This document shows, one piece after another, positions 9,740-63,755 of a stretch of DNA of 64,000 bases (its first letter is position 1; each line of letters begins with the position of its first letter). This stretch comes from Mustelus asterias. Taxonomy: Eukaryota. The stretch lies in the NCBI RefSeq assembly GCF_964213995.1, contig NW_027590173.1, positions 434,001 to 498,000 on the forward strand, written 5' to 3'. The notes below the pieces were generated by a model. The model was given only the letters and a program-made list of their open reading frames with translations. It made no database searches and had not been told where the DNA came from. Made by a program: the position numbers and the translations under genes.

Positions 9740-10072
9740 TAGAATAGGATCCCTCCAGTGCAGAAGGATGTTATTTGACCCATCAAGTCTGCACTGACTC
9801 AGCATTTTACCCAGGCCCTATCCCCATAACCCCACAAATTTACCACGGCTACATCCCCTAACTACACATCTTGGGATACCAAGGGGCAATTAACATGGCC
9901 AATCCGAATAACCTGCACAACTTTGAACTGTGGGAGGAAACCAGTGCACTTGGAGAAAACCCATGCAGATAAGGGGAGAATATGCAACCTCCACAAAGAC
10001 AGGCGTCCGAGGCCGGAAACGAACCTGGGTCCCTGGCATTGTGAGGCAGCTCTCTAACCATTGTGTCGCCCG
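9740..10072 (-). mobile_element. V-SINE/HE1-like SINE
   Basis: Same head, body and tail as 22560-22902, in reverse. Confidence 0.85.
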
Positions 10073-11495: not shown

Positions 11496-11544
11496 GAGTT
11501 CCGAGCGCGACTCAGTGATTCTGTGTCTGAAATTAACTGTGAGG

Positions 11545-12855: not shown

Positions 12856-13459
<604 letters not shown>

Positions 13460-13489
13460 AGCGCCCATTCTTTCATCTGATAACCCAAA

Positions 13490-13505
13490 GGCTCTTTTCA
13501 GAGCC
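13490..13505 (+). terminator. Histone 3' stem-loop
   Basis: GGCTCTTTTCAGAGCC, with GAAAAGGGCG downstream. Confidence 0.95.
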
Positions 13506-14479
13506 ACTCACTTTTTCTGGAAAAGGGCGATCTATTGTTTGCCCCTCAGATGCTGCGCTGCTATTCACAGTCCAGCTGTTTCCCGCTTTGTTTTATCAAT
13601 CCGGAGTTCCCCCTGTGTACGATAGTAAATAGACCCCATCAGTCTCGCAGCAGATAGAGGAATTCATCAGGCGAATACACCATCCACATTACGATAGTAT
13701 TGTCACAGGCAGTATTTTAATGCATGCAAGTTGCTGTTTTTTATTAATAGTTGATATCTGGAACTCGGGTTCTGATTTCAGTTAATCAACAATTTCATCA
13801 TTTGCGCCGTTTTTTGTGCAGCAAATAACCATCTGTGCAAACTAAGACTATTCCATTCTTACACAGATTATTACAGGTACAGAGAGGATTTGAAGTCTAT
13901 CTTCCGCCACTTAGTGCGTTAGACTCGATCTCCGACCCTTTTCTCTCAAGCCCATTCAGATTTAACATATAAACTCACAGGATCAGTGAAAGGGCTGCTT
14001 CCTGGCAGCAGGGAGTCAGAGATGGAGTTATTGTCACGGTGGATTGATCTGTTTCTGATTTGTTTACTGATGTTTTCAGTTCCCTCTCTATATTGAGCTC
14101 AAGTGAATAATTGAACGACATGGTGTCAGAATCAAGGTTTTTATAAATCCTTCAGTTTGCTTCATACCGAGTCCATCCCGGTGCATTATCGACAACAAGG
14201 AAGAATTTCGCAGTTGGAGAATTATATATTTTCCTCTGTCGGATGATCTGGGCGTCGCTCCCGGAACAGAGTAAAGGCGGGAATGAAGAGGTTATTCTCG
14301 GGCTGATCTGTTTCTTCCGCAGCTTTCCCAGAGGACGGAATCAGCGAGATTTCTGCACACACAGGACCTGAGTCCATTGCAGCGCTTGAAGATCTGCCTC
14401 CCCCCGGCGCTCCCTATTCTCCAGACACAAAGCTGCCTGTTCCACCGGCGGGATCGGGCCGGGGATTCTCTCCGCACTT

Positions 14480-19604: not shown

Positions 19605-22205
19605 TACAGTAACAGAGACTGACAGTTAATTGCATACATTATTAATAGATAGCTAGGGATTTATTTCCACAATCACACAGTAACAGATTGAGAGAGAGTT
19701 AATTCCACATTCACACTCAGTAATAGTTTGAGAGGGAGTTAATTACACATACACAGTAATTGGCTGAGAGAGTGTCAATTTCACACTCTCACACTGTAAC
19801 ATATTGAGAGAGAGTTATATCCACACTCTCACACAGTAATAGATTGAGAGAGAGTTCTTCCATCCTCACACACAACAATACAGTGAGAAACAGTTAATTC
19901 CACGCTCGCACACAGTGCAATAGATTGAGAGAGAGTCAATTCCACACTGACACACAGTAATAGATTGAGAGTTAATTCCACACTGAAACACAGTAATAGT
20001 TTGAGAGAGAGTTAATTACACACTCACACAGTGATAGATTGAGAGATTATTCATTGCACACTCGCACACAGTAATAGATTGAGAGAGATAATTCCACACT
20101 CTCTCACAATTCAATTCAGAGGGTGTTAATTCCACACACACACACTAACAGATTGAGATGGTTAATTCCACACTATCACATAGTAATAGATTGAGAGAGA
20201 GTTAATTCCACACACTCTCAGGAATAGATTGAGAGGGAGTTTATTCCACACTCATGCATAGTAATAGAACAAAGAACAATACAGCACAGGAACAGGCCCT
20301 TCGGCCCTCCAAGCCCGTGCCGCTCCCCGGTCCAGGATTGAATCCTGAAACCAGGATCCCCGCCCAATTTTCCAGCCTATCTACATACCAATATCCTATC
20401 CACCGAGCTGTCCCTCACAGCTACGATGCTTTGTTCATTACAACCTATTAACTCACCCCCACCCCCCTATTCCAGACCATGTGATCTCCAGGGAGAGGCG
20501 AAAACCCAGAGTGAAATAGATGGGAGTTAATTCCACCCTCTCACACAGTAATAGATTGAGAGAGAATTAATTCCACACTCACACTCAGTAATCGATTGAG
20601 AGAGAGTTAATTCCACACACTCTCAGGAATAGATTGAGAGGGAGTTAATTCCACACTCGCACCTAGTAATAGATGTGAGTTAATTCCACCCTCTCACACA
20701 GTAATAGATTGAGAGAGTATTATTTGCACACTCGCACTCAGTAATAGATTGAGAGATAGTTAATTCCACACTCACACTCAGTAATAGATTGTGAGAGAGT
20801 TAATTCCACACTGACAGAGCAATAGATTGAGAGAGAGTTAATTCCACACTGACAGAGCAATAGATTGAGAGAGAGTTAATTCCACACTGACAGAGCAATA
20901 GATTGAGAGAGAGTTAATTCCACACTGACAGAGCAATAGATTGCGAGAGAGTTAATTCAACACACACACAGCAATAGATTGAGAGAGCTACTTCCACAAT
21001 CACACAGAGGAATAGATTGAGAGAGAGTTAATTCCACACACACGCACACATGCACACACAGTAATAGGATAGAGTTAATTCCACACTCACATACAATAAT
21101 AGATTGAGAGAGTTAATTCTGCACAGTAATCGATAAAGTATTAGAAGAGAGTCATTTCCACACTCAAACACAGTAATAGAGTGAGAGAGTTAATTCTACA
21201 CTCACACACTAATAGATTGAGAGAGTTAATTCGACACTCATACACAGTAATAGACTGACAGAGGGTTATTTACACACTCACACACCTTAATAGATTGAGA
21301 GAGAATTAATTCTACACACAGTAACAGATTGAGAGAGTGATAATTCTATACTCTCACATAGTAATAGATTGTCAGAGAGTTACTGCCACACTCTCACATA
21401 GTAATAGATTGAGAGAGAGTTTCTGCCACACTGACACACAGGAGTAGATTGAGACAATTATAATTGCCGCTCTCACACACTAATGGATTGAGAGAGTCAA
21501 CTCCACACACACACACAGTAATAGATTGAGAGAGAGTTAGTTCCACACACACCACACACACACTCACACAGTAATAGATTGAGAGTTAGTTCCACACACA
21601 CACATACACACACACACTCACACAGTAATATATTGTCAGCTCGTTAATTCCACACACTCTCACACAGTCATAGATTGAGAGAGAGTTAGTTCCACATACA
21701 CACACACACAGTAATATATTGTCAGCTAGATAATTCAACACACTCTCACACAGTAATAGATTGAGAGGGAGAGTTAATTCCACACTCTCACAGTAATAGA
21801 CTGAGAGAGAGAGTTAACCACACACTAATAGATTGTCAGTGTTACTTGCACACTCTCTCACAGTAATAGATTAAGATAGAGTTAATTCCACACCGACACA
21901 CAGCAACTGATTGAGAGAAAGTTAATCCCACACCCACACACACTGTTAGATTGAGAGAGTTTTAATTCCACACACACACAGACAGTAATAGATTGTTAGA
22001 AGGTTAATTCCACCCAAACACAGCACTAGATTAAGATAGAGTTAATTATACACTGAGACACAGTAATAGATTGAAAGAGAGTTAATTCCACACTCTCACA
22101 CTAATAGATTGAGAGTTAATTCCACACCCATACAGTAATAGATTGAGAGAGTTGATTCTTCACGCACACTCGCTGATAGATTGAGAGAGTATTCATTGCA
22201 CACTT
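19605..22205. repeat. About 36-bp minisatellite (GAGAGAGTTAATTCCACACTCACACAGTAATAGATT)n, roughly 65 variable units
   Basis: Direct tandem repeats with GA/CA slippage; a homogeneous sub-block of near-identical units at about 20790-20960. Confidence 0.95.
20266..20515 (-). mobile_element. 5'-truncated copy of the extended CR1 3' UTR of the 31.6-36.5 kb element, inserted in the minisatellite
   Basis: Near-identical reverse complement of about 36259-36502. Confidence 0.9.
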
Positions 22206-24700
22206 ACACTGCTTCTAACGTGTTTACATCTTTCTTTCGATAAGGGGACCAGTACTGTATACAATCCTCCAGATGTGGTCTCACCTCGTCCTGTTCAAGT
22301 GAAGCATCAATTCCCTACAATTCCTCACATTAAGCAATAACATTCTATTTGCATTCCTAATTATTTGCTGCACATCTATATTAGCCTTTTCTGATTCATG
22401 CACTAGGAACCCAGAACCAGAGGGTTTTCACACAGAGTTGTGAGTGTCTGGAACGAGCTGCCAGAGGCAGTCGTAGAGGTGGGTACAATTTTGTCTTTTA
22501 AAAAGCATTTAGACACTTACATGGGTAATATTGGTATAAATTGGAATTGTAGGGAATTGGGGCGGCACGGTAGCACAGTGGTTAGCACTGCTGCTTCACA
22601 GCTCCAGGGACCTGGGTTCGATTCCTGGCTTGGGTCACTGTCTGTGTGGAGTTTGCACATTCTCCTCGTGTCTGCATGGGTTTCCTCTTGGTGCTCCAGT
22701 TTCCTCCCACAGTCCAATGATGTGCAGGTTAGGTTGATTGGCCATGCTAAAATTGCCGCTTCGTGTCTCGAGATGCGTAGGTTCGAGGGATTAGCGGGTA
22801 AATATGTCGGGATAAGGGGGTAGGGCCGGGATGGGATTGTGGTCGGTGCAGACTCGATGGGCCAAATGGCCTCTTTCTGCACTATAGGGCTTCTATGATT
22901 CTGAAGGGATACAGGCCGAATGCAGGCAATTGAGACTAGCTTAGTGGTATAAACAGGGCAGCTTGGACAAGTTGGGCCAAAGAGCTGTTTCCATGCTGTA
23001 AACCTCTATGACTCCAAGGATCCTATCAGCCTTATTAATAACTGTTTCAACTTGCCTTGCCCGCAACAGAGCATTATACACTTGAAACCCAAGTTCTCTC
23101 TGCTCCTGTACTTCCCCTAAATGCTGTACCATAATGGGCATATTTTCGCCTCATGTTTCTTGTACCAAAATGCATTTCCTCACATTTTGCTGCATTGCAA
23201 TTCATCTGCCAGGTGTCTGCCCATTTGGGCAACTTGTCAATGTCCCTCTAAAGTCACTCAGCATCATTCTCACAATTCACTATTCTCCCCAGCTTGGTAT
23301 TGTATGCAAATTTTGCCCTTTACAGCGATCTCTAAATGGTTTATATAAATCAGAAAAAGCAAGTGTCCCAACACTGATCCCTGGGGAACACCACTTTCAA
23401 CTCGTCTCGAGTCTGAGAAATGCACATCTGTACCCAACCTCTGTTTCCTATCTTTCAGCCAACTTCTAATCCATGCTGCCAAGGACCCATCAATCACAAA
23501 CATTTCTAATTCGCTCACCAACCTGCCATGTGGCACCATATCAAATGCTTTCTGATAGTCCAAATATACAACATCCACGGCACTACCCTCATCCAATGTC
23601 TGTGTCTCATCTTGCCAAACATGACCTGCCCTTGAGAAAATTATGTCATCTGCCGAGTATGAACTTATATTTCTCTGAGAGTATATCTATATCTTATTTC
23701 ATACTGTGGCCTCCATCTGTTTTCTCACTATTGATGTCCAGCTGAGAGGTCTGTAGTTTCCTGGGGTATCCTTTGCCCCTTTCCTGAAAAACAGCATTAC
23801 ATTTGCAATCCTCCAATCCCATGGGACTAATTCTGTGTTCAAAGAGGCCAGGAAGTTTCTGTCAATGGCTGCGCAATTTGCTCCCTCACCTCTCAGCAAT
23901 CTACGATGCATCCAGTCTGGACCTGGTGACTTCTCTACTGAGAGTGCTGCCAGAGTTTTAGTGCCTCTTCTTTATCTATCACTATACTGTTCAGTTACTG
24001 AGCACCCATATTTTCAACAAGGCCATTGTCACATTGTTTAATTTTGTAAAGACAGAAGCACCGTACTCATTTAGTATCTCTGCCATACCCTCTGCTTCAG
24101 TGACCAGTTTACCCTGCTCGTCCCTTATGAGCCCCACTTTATCCTTCACTAACCTTTTCACATGTATATGTTTGAAGAACATTTTACTATTTGTTTTAGC
24201 GCAGCCTGCTATCCTTTCCTCATGCTCCCTCTTAGCCTCCCTTATTAAAGCCTTAGCCTCTCTCCTGCATTTGAACTGTTTTTCCTGATTTCTATTGCTA
24301 TTATTATTCCAGCATGCATCCTATGTCTCTTTTTTCTTCCTTATTTTCTCATCAATATCCTTAGACTCCAGGATACTCTAGCTTTGGATGCCGTGTATTT
24401 ATTTCTGGTGGCTATGTGCCTGGCTGGCACCCTATTCATCTCAACTTTGAAAGTCTCAATTTTTCATCCACTGTTTCATCCTCGCAATTTGCCTCATTTG
24501 CCACATTTTGCCAATTCACATAACCTATCTGTTTCCTTTTGTAGCCTCCTTACGTACACTTTGCAATTAATTTCTTGTCAATCTTTATGCTGTCAGCAAA
24601 TTTAACAACCGTATCTTCAGTCCCTTCATCAAAGTCATTTTTATAAATTGTAACAAGTTGTGGCCCTGGTACAGATACACCATTCGACATATCCTGCCAC
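22205..24700. mobile_element. Nested decayed CR1 fragments (mostly minus strand; plus-strand 3' piece at 22420-23015 split by a SINE)
   Basis: DVVYLDYQKAFDMVPHGRL, GVPQGSVLG and DWRIANV...PGNYRPLS motifs. Confidence 0.85.
22560..22902 (+). mobile_element. Full-length V-SINE/HE1-like SINE
   Basis: A-box-like GGTAGCACAGTGG, B-box GGTTCGATTCC, V-domain, CR1-like tail ending TTCTATGATTCT. Confidence 0.9.
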
Positions 24701-30884: not shown

Positions 30885-31500
<616 letters not shown>

Positions 31501-31981: not shown

Positions 31982-33084
31982 AGGCTGAAAGGGCGAGGCA
32001 AGGCTAGTTATTTTTTATCCAACCCTATAAAGGATAAGGGCAGGTATGAGTGATCGGCCAGTTCAGTGCTTCCGATGTGGGAGTTCCTGCAAACACCTAG
32101 CTTCCCAGAGGTTCACATATGTGCCAGGTGCGTGGAACTGCAGCTCTTGAGGGACCGTGTCATGGAACTGGAGCTGCTGACCTTAGGCTAGTCAGGGAAA
32201 ATGGGAGAAAAATTGACAGGAGTTATAGGCAACTAGTTACACCGGGGCATCGGGAGGAAGACACGTGGGTCAGAGTTAGGAGTAAAGGGCAGAAGGGTAA
32301 AGTACCAGGGAGTACTCCAGTGGCGGTCTCTCAAAATAGGAAGGGCTTGGTGACAGGTGTGGGAGGGGAGTGAACAGTTAGAAGAGGGGTCACCTGTGGT
32401 TGTCCCACTCCAAAACAGGTATATTGTTTTGGATAGTGTGGAGGAGTGTGCCTCTCCAGGGGTAAGACACAGTGACCAGGTCACTGGCACACAGTCAGGC
32501 TCTGTGGCCCGGAAAGGGAAGAGGGGGGTTAGGAGAGCGATAGTGGTGGGGGATGCATCAGTTAGAGGCACAGACAGGCGATTCTGTGGGGGCGAACGGG
32601 ACTCCAGGATGGTAGTCTGCCTACCTGGTGCTGGGGTCACGGATGTCTCCGAACGGATAGGAGGCATATTAAAAGGGGAAGATAAAGAAACGGATGTCAT
32701 TATACACATTGGTGGAAATGACGTAGATAGGAAGAGTAGGGGGATCCTAAGAGAGCAATTCAGGGAGTTGGGAAATAGGTTAAAAAGTAGGGTCACTAGG
32801 GTGGCCATCTCTGGGCTGCTCCCAATGCCTCGTGCCAGTGAGGCTAAGAATAGGGAGTTGGTACAAATGAATGCCTGGCTAAAGGACTGGTCCAGGAGGG
32901 AGGGCTTCATTTTCATAGATCAATGGGAAGTTTTCAGGAGAGGATGGCACCTGTACAAGAAGGAGGGGTCACAACTAAGTTGGAAGGGCACAAATATCCT
33001 GGCTGGGAGCTTTGCTAGTGCAGTTCGGGGGGGTTTAAACTAGTATGGCAGGGGGGTGGGGATCAAAATATTAGGTCTACAAGT

Positions 33085-35971
33085 GTGGAGGCTGGGGACG
33101 AGCTTGGGGCTGGGACAAGGCTGGCAAAGAAGAAGAGCACTCTGGGGGAGGACGACCTCACTGGGCCTGGAGGTCTGGAGTGCTTATACTTCAATGCAAG
33201 GAGCGTAGCAGGTAAGACAGACGAACTTGGGGCCTTAATGCGCACGAGGAATTTGGATGTGGTTGCGGTGACAGAGACTTGGTTGAAAGAGGGACAGGAC
33301 TGGCAGCTGAATATTCCAGGGTACAAGTGTTTTAGGCGAGACAAAGGAGGGGCCAAAAGAGGTGGGGGAGTAGCGGTATTAGTTGGAGAGCATATATATT
33401 ACAGCGGTGCAGAGGGAGGACAATTCAGAGGGGTCGTGTAACGAGTCACTCTGGGTGGAGCTTAGAAACAGGAAAGGCGCAGTCACTATGTTGGGGGTGT
33501 ACTACAGGCCCCCCAACAGCCCAAGGGAAGTGGAAGAATGGATATGTCAGGAGATACTGGATAGGTGCAGGAAAAATAGGGTTGTTGTAGTGGGAGACTT
33601 CAATTTCCCTGGTATAGACTGGAAATCGCTGAGGGCAGGGACTCTGGATGGGGAGGAATTTGTAAAATGTGTACAGGAGGGTTCGTTGGAACAATATGTA
33701 GACAGCCCGACTAGAGAGGGGGCTATACTGGACCTGGTACTGGGGAATGAGCCCGGTCAGGTCTTCAAAGTTTTGGTAGGGGAACATGTGGCAAATAGTG
33801 ACCACAATTCTGTTAGCTTTAGGATAGTGATGGAAAAGGATGAGTGGTGTCCCAAGGGTAAGGTGTTGGATTGGGGGAAGGCCAACTTTAGTGGGATCAG
33901 GCAGAAATTGGCAGCTCTTGATTGGGAGAGGCTGTTTGAGGGTAAATCCACATCTGGTATGTGGCAGTCTTTTAAGGAATGGTTGTTAGGGCTACAGGAC
34001 AAGCATGTGCCTGTAAAAAAGAAGGATAGGAAGGGTAGGATTAGAGAACCGTGGATAACCAGGGAAATTGAGGGACTGGTCAAAAAGAAAAGAGAGGCAT
34101 ATGTTAGGTCCAAGCAGCTAAAAACGGAGGGAGCTCTGGAGGAGTACAAAGAAAGTAGGAAAGTACTCAAACGGGGGATGAGAAGAGCAAAAAGGGGTCA
34201 CGAAATGTTCTTGGCAGACAGGATTAAGGAGAATCCCAAGGCATTTTATTCATACGTTGGGAACAAAAGGGTTGTTAGGGAAAAAATCGGACCTCTCAGG
34301 GACAAAAGTGGGGACTTATGCTTGGAGCCCAAAGAAGTAGGGGAGATCCTAAATGAATACCTTGCGTCGGTATTCACAAAGGAGAGGGATGTGTTGACTG
34401 GGAGTGTCTCGGAGGGGAGTGTTGAACCGTTGGAGAAAATCTCCATTACAAAGGAGGAAGTGTTAGGTTTGTTAGAGAATATAAAGACTGACAAATCCCC
34501 AGGGCCTGATGGAATCTATCCAAGGCTGCTCAGGGAGACGAGAGGTGAAATCGTTGGGCCTCTGACGCAAATCTTTGTCTCGTCACTGGACGCAGGTGAG
34601 GTCCCAGAGGATTGGAGGATAGCCAATGTGGTCCCGTTATTTAAGAAGGGTAGGAAGGATAACCCGGGTAATTATAGGCCGGTGAGCTTGACGTCCGTGG
34701 TGGGGAAGTTGTTGGAGAAGATTCTTAGAGATAGGATGTATGCGCATTTAGAAAGGAATAAACTCATTAACGATAGTCAGCATGGTTTTGTGAGAGGGAG
34801 GTCATGCCTCACTAACCTGGTGGTGTTTTTTGAAGAAGTGACCAGAATGGTTGACGAAGGAAGGGCCGTGGATGTTGTCTATATGGACTTTAGTAAAGCG
34901 TTTGACAAAGTCCCTCATGGTAGGCTAGTGAAAAAGGTTGGATCTCATGGGATAAAGGGGGAGGTGGCTAGATGGGTGGAGAACTGGCTTGGTCATAGAA
35001 GACAGAGGGTGGTAGTGGAAGGGTCTTTTTCCGGCTGGAGGCCTGTGACTAGTGGTGTACCGCAGAGCTCTGTATTGGGACCTCTGCTGTTTGTGATTTA
35101 TATAAATGATCTGGAAGAAGGAGTAACTGGGGTGATCAGTAAGTTTGCGGACGACACAAAACTGGCAAGACTTGCAGATAGTGAGGAGCATTGTCAGAAG
35201 CTACAGAAGGATATAGATAGGCTGGAAATTTGGGCAAAGAAATGGCAGATGGAGTTCAATCCTGATAAATGCGAAGTGATGCATTTTGGTGGGAATAATG
35301 TAGGGAGGAGCTACACGATAAATGGAAGAACCATAAAGGGTGTAGAGACGCAGAGGGACCTGGGTGTGCAAGTCCACAGATCTTTGAAGGTGACGTCACA
35401 GGTGGAGAAGGTGGTGAAGAAGGCATATGGCATGCTTGCCTTTATAGGACGGGGCATAGAGTATAAAAGTTGGGGGCTGATGTTGCAGATGTATAGAACG
35501 TTGGTTCAGCCGCATTTGGAATACTGCGTCCAGTTCTGGTCGCCACACTACCAGAAGGACGTGGAGGCTTTGGAGAGAGCACAGAGGAGGTTTACCAGGA
35601 TGTTGCCTGGTATGGAGGGGCTTGGTTATGAGGAGAGATTGGGGAAACTGGGGTTGTTCTCCTTGGAAAGACGGAGGATGAGGGGAGACTTAATAGAGGT
35701 GTATAAAATTATGAAAGGCATAGATAGGGTGAACGGTGGGAAGCTTTTCACCAGGTCGGTGGTGACGTTCACGAGGGGTCATAGGTTCAAGGTGAAGGGG
35801 GGGAGGTTTAACACAGATATCAGAAGGACATATTTTACACAGAGGGTCGTGGGGGCCTGGAATGTGTTGCCGGGCAAGGTGGTGGAGGCGGACACACTGG
35901 GAACGTTTAAGACTTATCTAGACAGCTATATGAACGGAGTGGGAATGGAGGGATACAAAAGAGTGGTCTAG
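33085..35971 (+). pseudogene. CR1 ORF2 (APE plus RT) with one frameshift at the CATATATATT run (about 33391-33400) and PQG changed to PQS
   Basis: ORFs 33085..33441 and 33383..35971 overlap in different frames; FADD is intact. Confidence 0.88.
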
Positions 35972-37094
35972 TTTGGACCAGGGAGCGGCGCGGGCTAATT
36001 GTTCTTTGTTTCTCGTTTCAAGGCTTCATTCTATGATCATCTTGCTGGTGCCAGTACAGAGCGAGACTGCGGATAGTTGGGAACCTGTCTCGGGGGCAGG
36101 GAATTCAGATGGTGTTCGTAAAGCAGAAGTGGAAATGAATAGGGTTGGGAAGCATTTTCTGATCAGGGCCAGTGTGATCTCCTGGACTCGTTTCGATCGC
36201 CTCAGGGGGTCGGAGAGGAATTTCCCAGATTTTTCTTTCTCCATATTGGCCCTGGGGTTTTCACTCTGGGTTTTTGCCTCTCCCTGGAGATCACATGGTC
36301 TGGAATGGGGGGGTGGGGGTGAGTTAATAGGTTGTGATGAACAAAGCATCGTAGCTGTGAGGGACAGCTTGGTGGATAGGATATTAGGATGTAGATAGGC
36401 TGGAAAATTGGGCGGGGATCCTGGATTCAATCCTGGACCGGGGAGCGGCGCGGGCTTGGAGGGCCGAAGGGCCTGTTCCTGTGCTGTATTGTTCTTTGTT
36501 CTTTTTCGTACTATTGACACATACAGTATTTTAATGCAAGTTGCTGCTGTTTATTGGGGAAACTATCCCAGTGAACATAAATGCTCCTATTTCAAATATA
36601 ATTGCTTTAAAATGTGATAATCTGCGAGGACATTCATCTGCAGCCCATCGGTTTTCAGTCAGTCACTATCTGGAAAAGTGTTAATTATTGTCTATGCGAA
36701 TGTGCAAGCGTTTCTGCAATGGCTATATCTGTGTGAGTGGGCTCCTGTTTGAGACATGCTTCATATTCTGAACCTAATTGACGCAATTTTCAACACTCGC
36801 TGCGACTCGAAACACGTGCGGAGAAAGTGGATTTGCGGAATTATTGCTCGGAAACTGAAATGATCGCAGGTTTAATAAAACCACTTTAAAATTGAATTGC
36901 GGCAGAATTGTTAACGGCATCGTTTTTACTCTAACCATCGAAGGATTGGAGATATGAGTGACCCCAATGCAACGGAGAGTTAATTGTAACATTGAGAGGT
37001 TTCAGTACTGGAGTCCTGGGAATATTCTGTCCTGGGAATTCAAACACGAGAATCGTTAACAGGAGATCGCAGCTCTTTCATTTGCCGATTTTGT

Positions 37095-37139: not shown

Positions 37140-37610
<471 letters not shown>

Positions 37611-63064: not shown

Positions 63065-63186
63065 TCAATAATGTGCACAGGGCGAACGACGGATTGATAA
63101 AGCAAAGCGAGAAACAGCTCTACTGTGAATAGCAGTACACTGTCTCTGACGGTTAAACAGATCACCCTTTTTCAGATAAAGTGAGT

Positions 63187-63202
63187 GGCTCTGAAAAGAG
63201 CC
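63187..63202 (-). terminator. Histone 3' stem-loop (H2A)
   Basis: Reverse complement GGCTCTTTTCAGAGCC. Confidence 0.95.
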
Positions 63203-63232
63203 TTTGGGTTATCAGATTAAAGAATGGCCGCT

Positions 63233-63682
<450 letters not shown>

Positions 63683-63755
63683 TTATAGCTCTGGGAGGAA
63701 TGGAGGTGCGGACATTGCTGATTGGTCACTTTGTTGCTGCCTCTCAGCATCTTGT

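Follow-up and report, generated by a model that had tools for sequence, protein, structure and literature searches.

ENEs have been described in viral RNAs, in MALAT1/MEN-beta and in plant, fungal, slime-mold and stickleback retrovirus-type elements (PMC7583470, excerpted sections). According to the same excerpts, the PAN ENE of KSHV is a single domain on an RNA with a known poly(A) tail, in which a U-run faces a U-run, with a short 3' bulge and a closing C-G pair above. The double ENE (dENE) of the rice hAT transposon TWIFB1 comprises two U-rich loops with a short duplex between them, lying close to the 3' end of a transposon RNA without introns (excerpts of PMC7583470 and PMC13541005). Its lower domain has a 3-4-nt bulge and an interrupted stem (PMC7583470, excerpt), and a review names a conserved adenosine triad together with a 3'-end pocket motif as dENE features (PMC13541005, excerpt). 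In Arabidopsis, the active LTR retrotransposon Evade (Copia93) bears in its 3' UTR an ENE with four U-tracts in two internal loops; as far as the excerpt of PMC12501189 goes, it raises RNA level and transposition and requires the G-C pairs beside the U-loops, and poly(A) tail, triplex melting and mobility effect were all measured. Stringent-type LINEs (e.g., UnaL2, ZfL2-1/2), in turn, end in a terminal stem-loop and a microsatellite and require the stem-loop, its loop above all (excerpt of PMC4176376; such tails are described also in the excerpt of PMC3747384).

We analysed a window of 64,000 nt from the shark Mustelus asterias (contig NW_027590173.1, positions 434,001 to 498,000). A CR1 LINE sits there between two histone-like reading frames, which we take from their translations to be H2A and H3, and a histone cluster surrounds the element (window 31051-31500, 37140-37610, 12937-13536 and 63156-63755). 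Another contig (L002) repeats the CR1 insertion and its 3' flank at 99.95%, and represents either a duplicated histone cluster or an assembly duplicate. On the plus strand, to which the coordinates below refer unless noted, the element possesses a remnant of an esterase-type ORF1 (32354-33043; Pfam Lipase_GDSL_2, E 2.7e-8, and OSK), with the 5' end of the element upstream of 32354, and an ORF2 for APE endonuclease and reverse transcriptase (33019-35971; Exo_endo_phos, Exo_endo_phos_2 and RVT_1, E 2.8e-34). ORF2 is split over two frames around 33383-33441, near its start; ORF1 appears to be split as well (window 32101-32373). The esterase ORF1, a trait of vertebrate CR1 (PMC13343379, excerpt), the APE and reverse transcriptase domains of ORF2, the microsatellite tail and the 5'-truncated copies identify the host as a vertebrate CR1 LINE.

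Behind ORF2, the initial annotation had placed a 437-bp cassette bracketed by 23-bp direct repeats. The match itself stands (35974-35996 and 36434-36456 are identical at 22 of 23 positions, with 437 nt between them), and the positions given for repeats, helices, stems and loops all agree with the sequence. The repeats, however, are two CR1 tails, i.e., the locus is a two-tail chimera, and a target-site duplication was rejected for the same reason. Compared with the cassette-less copies L011 and L151-L170, the first tail (35974-36011) is crippled: it lacks ~31 nt including the predicted tail hairpin, and 35997-36011 is the leftover of its microsatellite. It is followed by a captured segment, whose 5' part (36012-36165) had no homolog in the 432 kb searched, and by a conserved RNA module (36166-36301). 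The ~130 nt ahead of the second tail (36303-36433) are a decayed piece of CR1 ORF2 joined to this tail; they match window 35129-35264 (26 of 28 positions at 36386-36413) with a local score of 61, reached by none of 100 shuffles (maximum 43). The second tail (36434-36504) is intact, with stem-loop and (TTCTTTG)n and no poly(A), and provides the 3' end used by the copies. Note that most copies have 7 extra nt at 36416-36433, completing a small hairpin that stands in place of the middle of the ORF2-derived piece; these nucleotides are absent from the window copy (2 of 91 rows).

A second, 5'-truncated copy was confirmed on the minus strand of the window at 20263-20516 (20266-20515 in the initial annotation), with 94% identity over 254 nt and a start in the upper U-rich loop, equivalent to 36259. 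In the whole genome (3.68 Gb), a 28-mer from the segment matches exactly at 9,815 places and a 22-mer, with up to two mismatches allowed, at 11,509, so that the cassette indeed belongs to a mobile family of at least 11,509 copies. Of the 9,815 places listed, the 90 that came first were inspected; all 90 end at the same (TTCTTTG)n tail and none in poly(A). In a tree built from the terminal 626 nt of ORF2 (84 rows, including 60 cassette copies and 16 cassette-less sisters, with a midpoint root against a more distant lineage and a bootstrap that has incompletely settled), the 60 cassette copies form one clade (support 100/99) within cassette-less relatives. This nesting shows that the segment was gained once, and recently, from cassette-less CR1 relatives, and the view of the cassette as a captured, mobile 3' UTR extension holds. 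A close sister lineage without the segment (L011) has at least 5,489 tails.

Furthermore, 3'-end capture has recurred in a second CR1 lineage, ~14% divergent, which bears the same 3' end behind its own tail in 11 of the 90 copies. At the junction, the own tail is joined to the sequence from window 35793 onward (L038, L054, L064, L218-L237), and the first hairpin of this lineage has one base missing. The extension was present in 19 of 20 sampled copies with this hairpin lesion vs 1 of 20 with an intact hairpin; genome-wide there are 436 matches for the lesioned form (at least 436 copies) vs 16,907 for the intact one. As in stringent-type LINEs, hairpin loss or loop change goes with the use of a downstream tail (PMC4176376 and PMC3747384, excerpts). 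Template jump or read-through may have joined the module, the ORF2 scrap and the second tail behind the element's own tail; after loss of the first hairpin, ORF2p would start at the distal tail, and every copy would carry the module. The known behaviour of stringent tails and of template-jump chimeras accounts for gain and carriage of the segment, not for the role of the internal module.

Several other arrangements were seen among the copies. Template-jump LINE chimeras are known, and L035/L253, in which the intact tail of the large module-free lineage runs directly into a copy whose truncation lies inside the fold (start equivalent to 36237), is probably a single chimera of this kind. A deletion subfamily (L045, L074, L093, L096, L109; 5 of 90 copies) has in common a loss of 109 nt (36017-36125) that spares the fold. 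About 15 variants segregate mosaically in the segment (36005-36390), and ORF2 (35371-35996) is almost free of subfamily structure; the mosaic suggests recombination between RNAs or quicker change of the UTR.

In the predicted fold of the module, an outer helix (36166-36182/36286-36301), a side hairpin (36195-36211) and a long arm meet in a three-way junction. The ENE-like arm (36212-36283), assigned from predicted fold and copy alignment, starts with a 7-bp stem (36212-36218/36277-36283), followed by a lower U-rich loop (36219-36223/36271-36276), a 6-bp stem (36224-36229/36265-36270), an upper U-rich loop (36230-36238/36258-36264), a cap stem (36239-36243/36253-36257) and an apical loop (36244-36252). 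On either side the lower loop is flanked by G-C pairs, which do not vary among the 5 rows compared, and two conserved adenosines lie at its base; the upper loop is predicted to have C-G above and A-U below. The module is located ~220 nt upstream of the element end, taking the 3' end as in genomic copies. The defining feature of PAN-type ENEs is present in the predicted fold and kept across copies.

The helices and loops are as first annotated, but the window copy proved to be atypical. It has three private changes within the fold: the family alignment has T at 36235 (75 of 79 rows), C at 36240 (78 of 80) and C at 36275 (82 of 83). With these majority bases the cap stem is a perfect 5-bp helix rather than the weak stem described before, and the 5' strand of the upper loop is nearly pure U7-U13. 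The window copy alone folds with a z of -2.2, and within the whole UTR another fold is predicted, with a pair probability of 0 for the module. The majority-type copy L014 folds with a z of -4.6 (-63.0 kcal/mol), matched by none of 500 shuffles. Its fold persists in the whole UTR, with pair probabilities of ~0.6-0.67, and of 0.09 for the pair at the outer end of the 7-bp stem. A descriptor of two nested U-rich internal loops, composed after the fold was seen, was found in 0 of 10,000 cassette shuffles, in 0 of 1,760 random genomic tiles and in 1 of 10,000 relaxed core shuffles; the window's own copy does not satisfy it, and 831,656 bases, overlapping loci included, contained no match to it. In Rfam 15, no family reached the gathering threshold (best E 0.66 and 0.87).

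Inside the family, the 5' strand of the lower loop reads AAUUU in 106 of 107 parsed copies, and both 3' U-runs are retained in 117 of 117. Conservation of the U-runs, on which the initial annotation had made its reading depend, is thus borne out for both loops. Constraint was assessed in a set of 134 copies, with 30 loci chosen for their likeness to the window, counting as common those variants that occur in at least four copies. Among 84 paired sites one has such a variant (a non-breaking change from A-U to G-U); the fold's unpaired sites have 8 in 54, and the flanks 18 in 306. Paired sites differ from all others (1/84 vs 26/360; Fisher p 0.02, or p 0.004 for breaking changes only); without CpG and U-run sites, the selection signal has p 0.13. 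Private mutation rates are equal (0.0033 at paired sites vs 0.003-0.004 elsewhere). These data support the view that lineage-level variants avoid helix breakage. In run X6, deep contigs of another organism show majority differences at several flank positions, whereas in the fold they depart from the window copy at its private changes only; runs X5, X7 and X14 gave shallow contigs bearing the family's own alleles.

A degenerate search pattern, in which the stem was loosened to purine/pyrimidine and the gap range followed in part the CR1 tails of reptiles, retrieved four loci (L258-L261) from a metagenome collection. They have 55-61% GC, are mutually 77-95% related and lie near CR1 pieces. We call them bird-like for the octamer-repeat CR1 end at one of them, which is presumably of the amniote type. 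All four are predicted to fold into the three-way junction of the shark module (z -3.1 to -5.6). The outer helix is long and kept, with a sequence unrelated to that of the shark; all six pairs of the side hairpin are unchanged, and in the 7-bp stem three of seven pairs are altered on both sides (4 of 18 overall). Each also has the lower U-rich loop and an apical loop resembling that of the shark, and outside the search pattern 27-29 of 53 columns are identical. For the covariation check proposed in the initial annotation, compensatory changes exist relative to these distant loci, which are related to each other and so give a single independent contrast with the shark; none of the 134 family copies has a compensatory double change. 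A sequence-only model built from L258-L261 ranks the shark module second within the 464 kb searched, with an E of only 0.15, so that homology rests jointly on pattern, structure and covariation. As the same predicted junction and lower U-rich loop recur with three of seven stem pairs changed on both sides, the core of the module is, judged from sequence and modelled structure, of old age and conserved in its architecture. The bird-like loci lack the upper loop, which is hence shark-specific in this comparison: the shark family has two U-rich loops parted by the 6-bp duplex, vs a single loop in L258-L261. In three of the four loci, a second U-rich unit follows in tandem (E 3e-4 to 0.04).

The bird-like loci form a GC-rich repeat, in which the module is followed by tandem units of ~170 nt, the next one with longer U-runs and the third without them. 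In L259, a CR1 ORF2 start lies ~1,060 nt downstream, and in L258 a complete CR1 end lies ~740 nt upstream. The bird-like module thus lies in the vicinity of CR1 pieces, and its location in a CR1 3' UTR is putative.

Searches for the origin of the module covered several candidate sources. A donor family would place the segment behind another 5' flank; there were 7 and 6 foreign-flank matches in the genome, and those inspected (6 of 7 and 6 of 6) all were truncated or rearranged family copies, so that an independent SINE or donor family in the genome was rejected. The bird-like stem variant had 0 matches in the shark genome, and covariance model R1 revealed no further shark carrier in 588,916 bases. 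Viral contigs contained neither the full pattern (0 matches) nor a CR1 relative, all 19 half-pattern matches were without the U-loop arm, and a viral or bacterial source was rejected. De novo birth of the fold from ORF2 was dropped once the bird-like loci had been found. A related explanation, in which T runs expanded in a decayed duplicate of ORF2 and the fold came about by chance, would be in line with the ORF2 origin of the adjoining 3' third, with the ready expansion of T runs and with an anchored alignment of fold and ORF2 (z 2.7-3.7 for close relatives). The unanchored test revealed no similarity to ORF2, however, 31 of 100 shuffles being equally good, the pattern is missing from shuffles and genomic tiles, and the same module with compensatory changes in L258-L261 largely refutes this explanation, which we consider very improbable. 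In fact, the module is real, non-random and conserved.

The initial annotation had further proposed that reverse transcriptase stalls inside the fold. Counts of 22-mers (two mismatches allowed) were 11,509, 11,074, 10,658 and 9,876 at 36337, 36284, 36208 and 36126, respectively, which corresponds to a truncation rate of 5.0e-4 per nt in the U-loop core vs 7.3e-4 and 9.3e-4 on either side. The highest of these values is inflated, since about half of the copies have a built-in mismatch to the 36126 pattern, so that truncation in the core may still mildly exceed that on the 5' side. Stalling in the fold was rejected, as the U-loop core has the lowest rate genome-wide; a cluster of 7 ends at 36237-36294 among the 90 copies was not sustained across the genome.

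For the function of the module, the best match is a clamp for poly(A), ENE-like and carried by a vertebrate LINE, a reading to which we give an even chance: its opposed U-runs closed by G-C pairs, long conserved and lying close to the 3' end of a transposon, recall the clamp measured for Evade. The CR1 RNA would be polyadenylated downstream of the microsatellite, and reverse transcription starting internally at the microsatellite would leave the A-tail uncopied. The U-rich loops could then hold the poly(A) tail in a U.A-U triple helix, slowing RNA decay, with 3-4 triples in the lower loop and 4-5 in the shark-specific upper one. The sparing of the fold by the deletion subfamily and the capture of the same 3' end by the second lineage also speak for a clamp. 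Against it, the UTR contains no AATAAA or ATTAAA, and an A6 run was found within 45 nt at 2 of 133 copy ends, both times in flanking DNA; within the CR1 group, Zenon alone is credited with poly(A) tails in the excerpt of PMC13343379. Neither the side hairpin nor the apical loop, both conserved, belongs to the features of an ENE, the upper loop has A-U instead of G-C as the pair beneath it, and module-free CR1 lineages are abundant (5,489 and 16,907 tails).

Some of these observations would also fit a functional three-way junction that binds ORF1p, ORF2p or a host protein for RNP assembly, export or translation, the U-loops being protein sites or hinges. A side hairpin of invariant sequence and an apical loop alike in shark and bird-like loci are needed by no simple ENE, a poly(A) source is not encoded, and 3' UTR structures serve protein recognition in stringent LINEs (PMC4176376, excerpt). 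The conserved feature of the loops, however, is the opposition of U-runs closed by G-C pairs; a second U-loop occurs in both lineages, nested in the shark and tandem in the bird-like loci, and the hairpin for recognition by reverse transcriptase is a separate one, at the tail. We regard a protein-binding junction as possible but unlikely. Doubtful to a greater degree is that the module worked in an older donor and has been carried here as a passenger through the broken first tail, with no advantage, although its single recent gain, the crippled first tail that makes carriage obligatory, the large CR1 families lacking it and the modest constraint within the family (p 0.02-0.13) would all agree with this. 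The absence of helix-breaking lineage variants from 84 paired sites, the deletion that spares the fold and the pattern of differences in X6 argue against mere carriage.

Going beyond the clamp itself, one may tentatively picture an ancient three-way-junction ENE that predates the shark/land-vertebrate split, is portable between vertebrate CR1 lineages by tail capture and clamps a never-copied poly(A) tail; its U-loop would have been doubled independently, nested in sharks and tandem in the bird-like lineage, and it would have driven the recent burst of this CR1 lineage. Taken as a whole, we think this scenario less likely than the clamp alone.

The cassette shares with the PAN ENE (PMC7583470, excerpt) the facing U-runs, the short 3' bulge and the C-G closing above, and differs in its A-U pair under the upper loop. 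With the dENE it shares the two U-rich loops, the short duplex between them and the position close to the 3' end of a transposon RNA free of introns. The strict dENE membership suggested by the initial annotation was not upheld: the 3-4-nt bulge and the interrupted stem of the lower domain (PMC7583470, excerpt) are absent, and the bulge in the cassette is instead one of 2 nt, (C/U)G, with a 7-bp stem that runs without interruption up from the three-way junction. Two adenosines are visible, where the excerpted review names a triad (PMC13541005). Furthermore, its host is a non-LTR element with copies that lack poly(A), and the lower loop alone is anciently conserved. We therefore do not class the module as a dENE, and its reading as ENE-like is about as probable as its opposite. 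Evade is similar in its four U-tracts, two internal loops, G-C pairs beside the loops and 3' UTR location, but is a plant LTR element known from measurement (PMC12501189, excerpt), whereas the cassette is known from sequence and predicted fold. The MALAT1/MEN-beta triple helix is likewise vertebrate and has a long U-run (interrupted by one C in some copies of the cassette); in the cassette no tRNA-like processing element was seen and no MALAT1-type downstream A-rich tract is encoded, the longest A run 3' of the fold being 4.

In the literature searched, much of it in excerpt and exclusive of the element lists of Tycowski 2016, we found no report of an ENE in a LINE. If the clamp works, CR1 RNAs would be polyadenylated although their copies are not, and a junction with a nested second loop would represent a new ENE architecture. 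The sister lineages with and without the module would then offer a natural comparison of RNA stability and vertebrate LINE bursts. Even without a clamp, the module is a conserved structured RNA absent from Rfam.

Apart from the CR1 element, the window contains an inverted repeat at 754-1847, with arms of 539 nt that are 99% complementary and separated by 16 nt. Tandem satellites are present at 9-595 (36-nt unit) and at 19655-22250 (38-40 nt), and the truncated second copy of the cassette is inserted within the latter.
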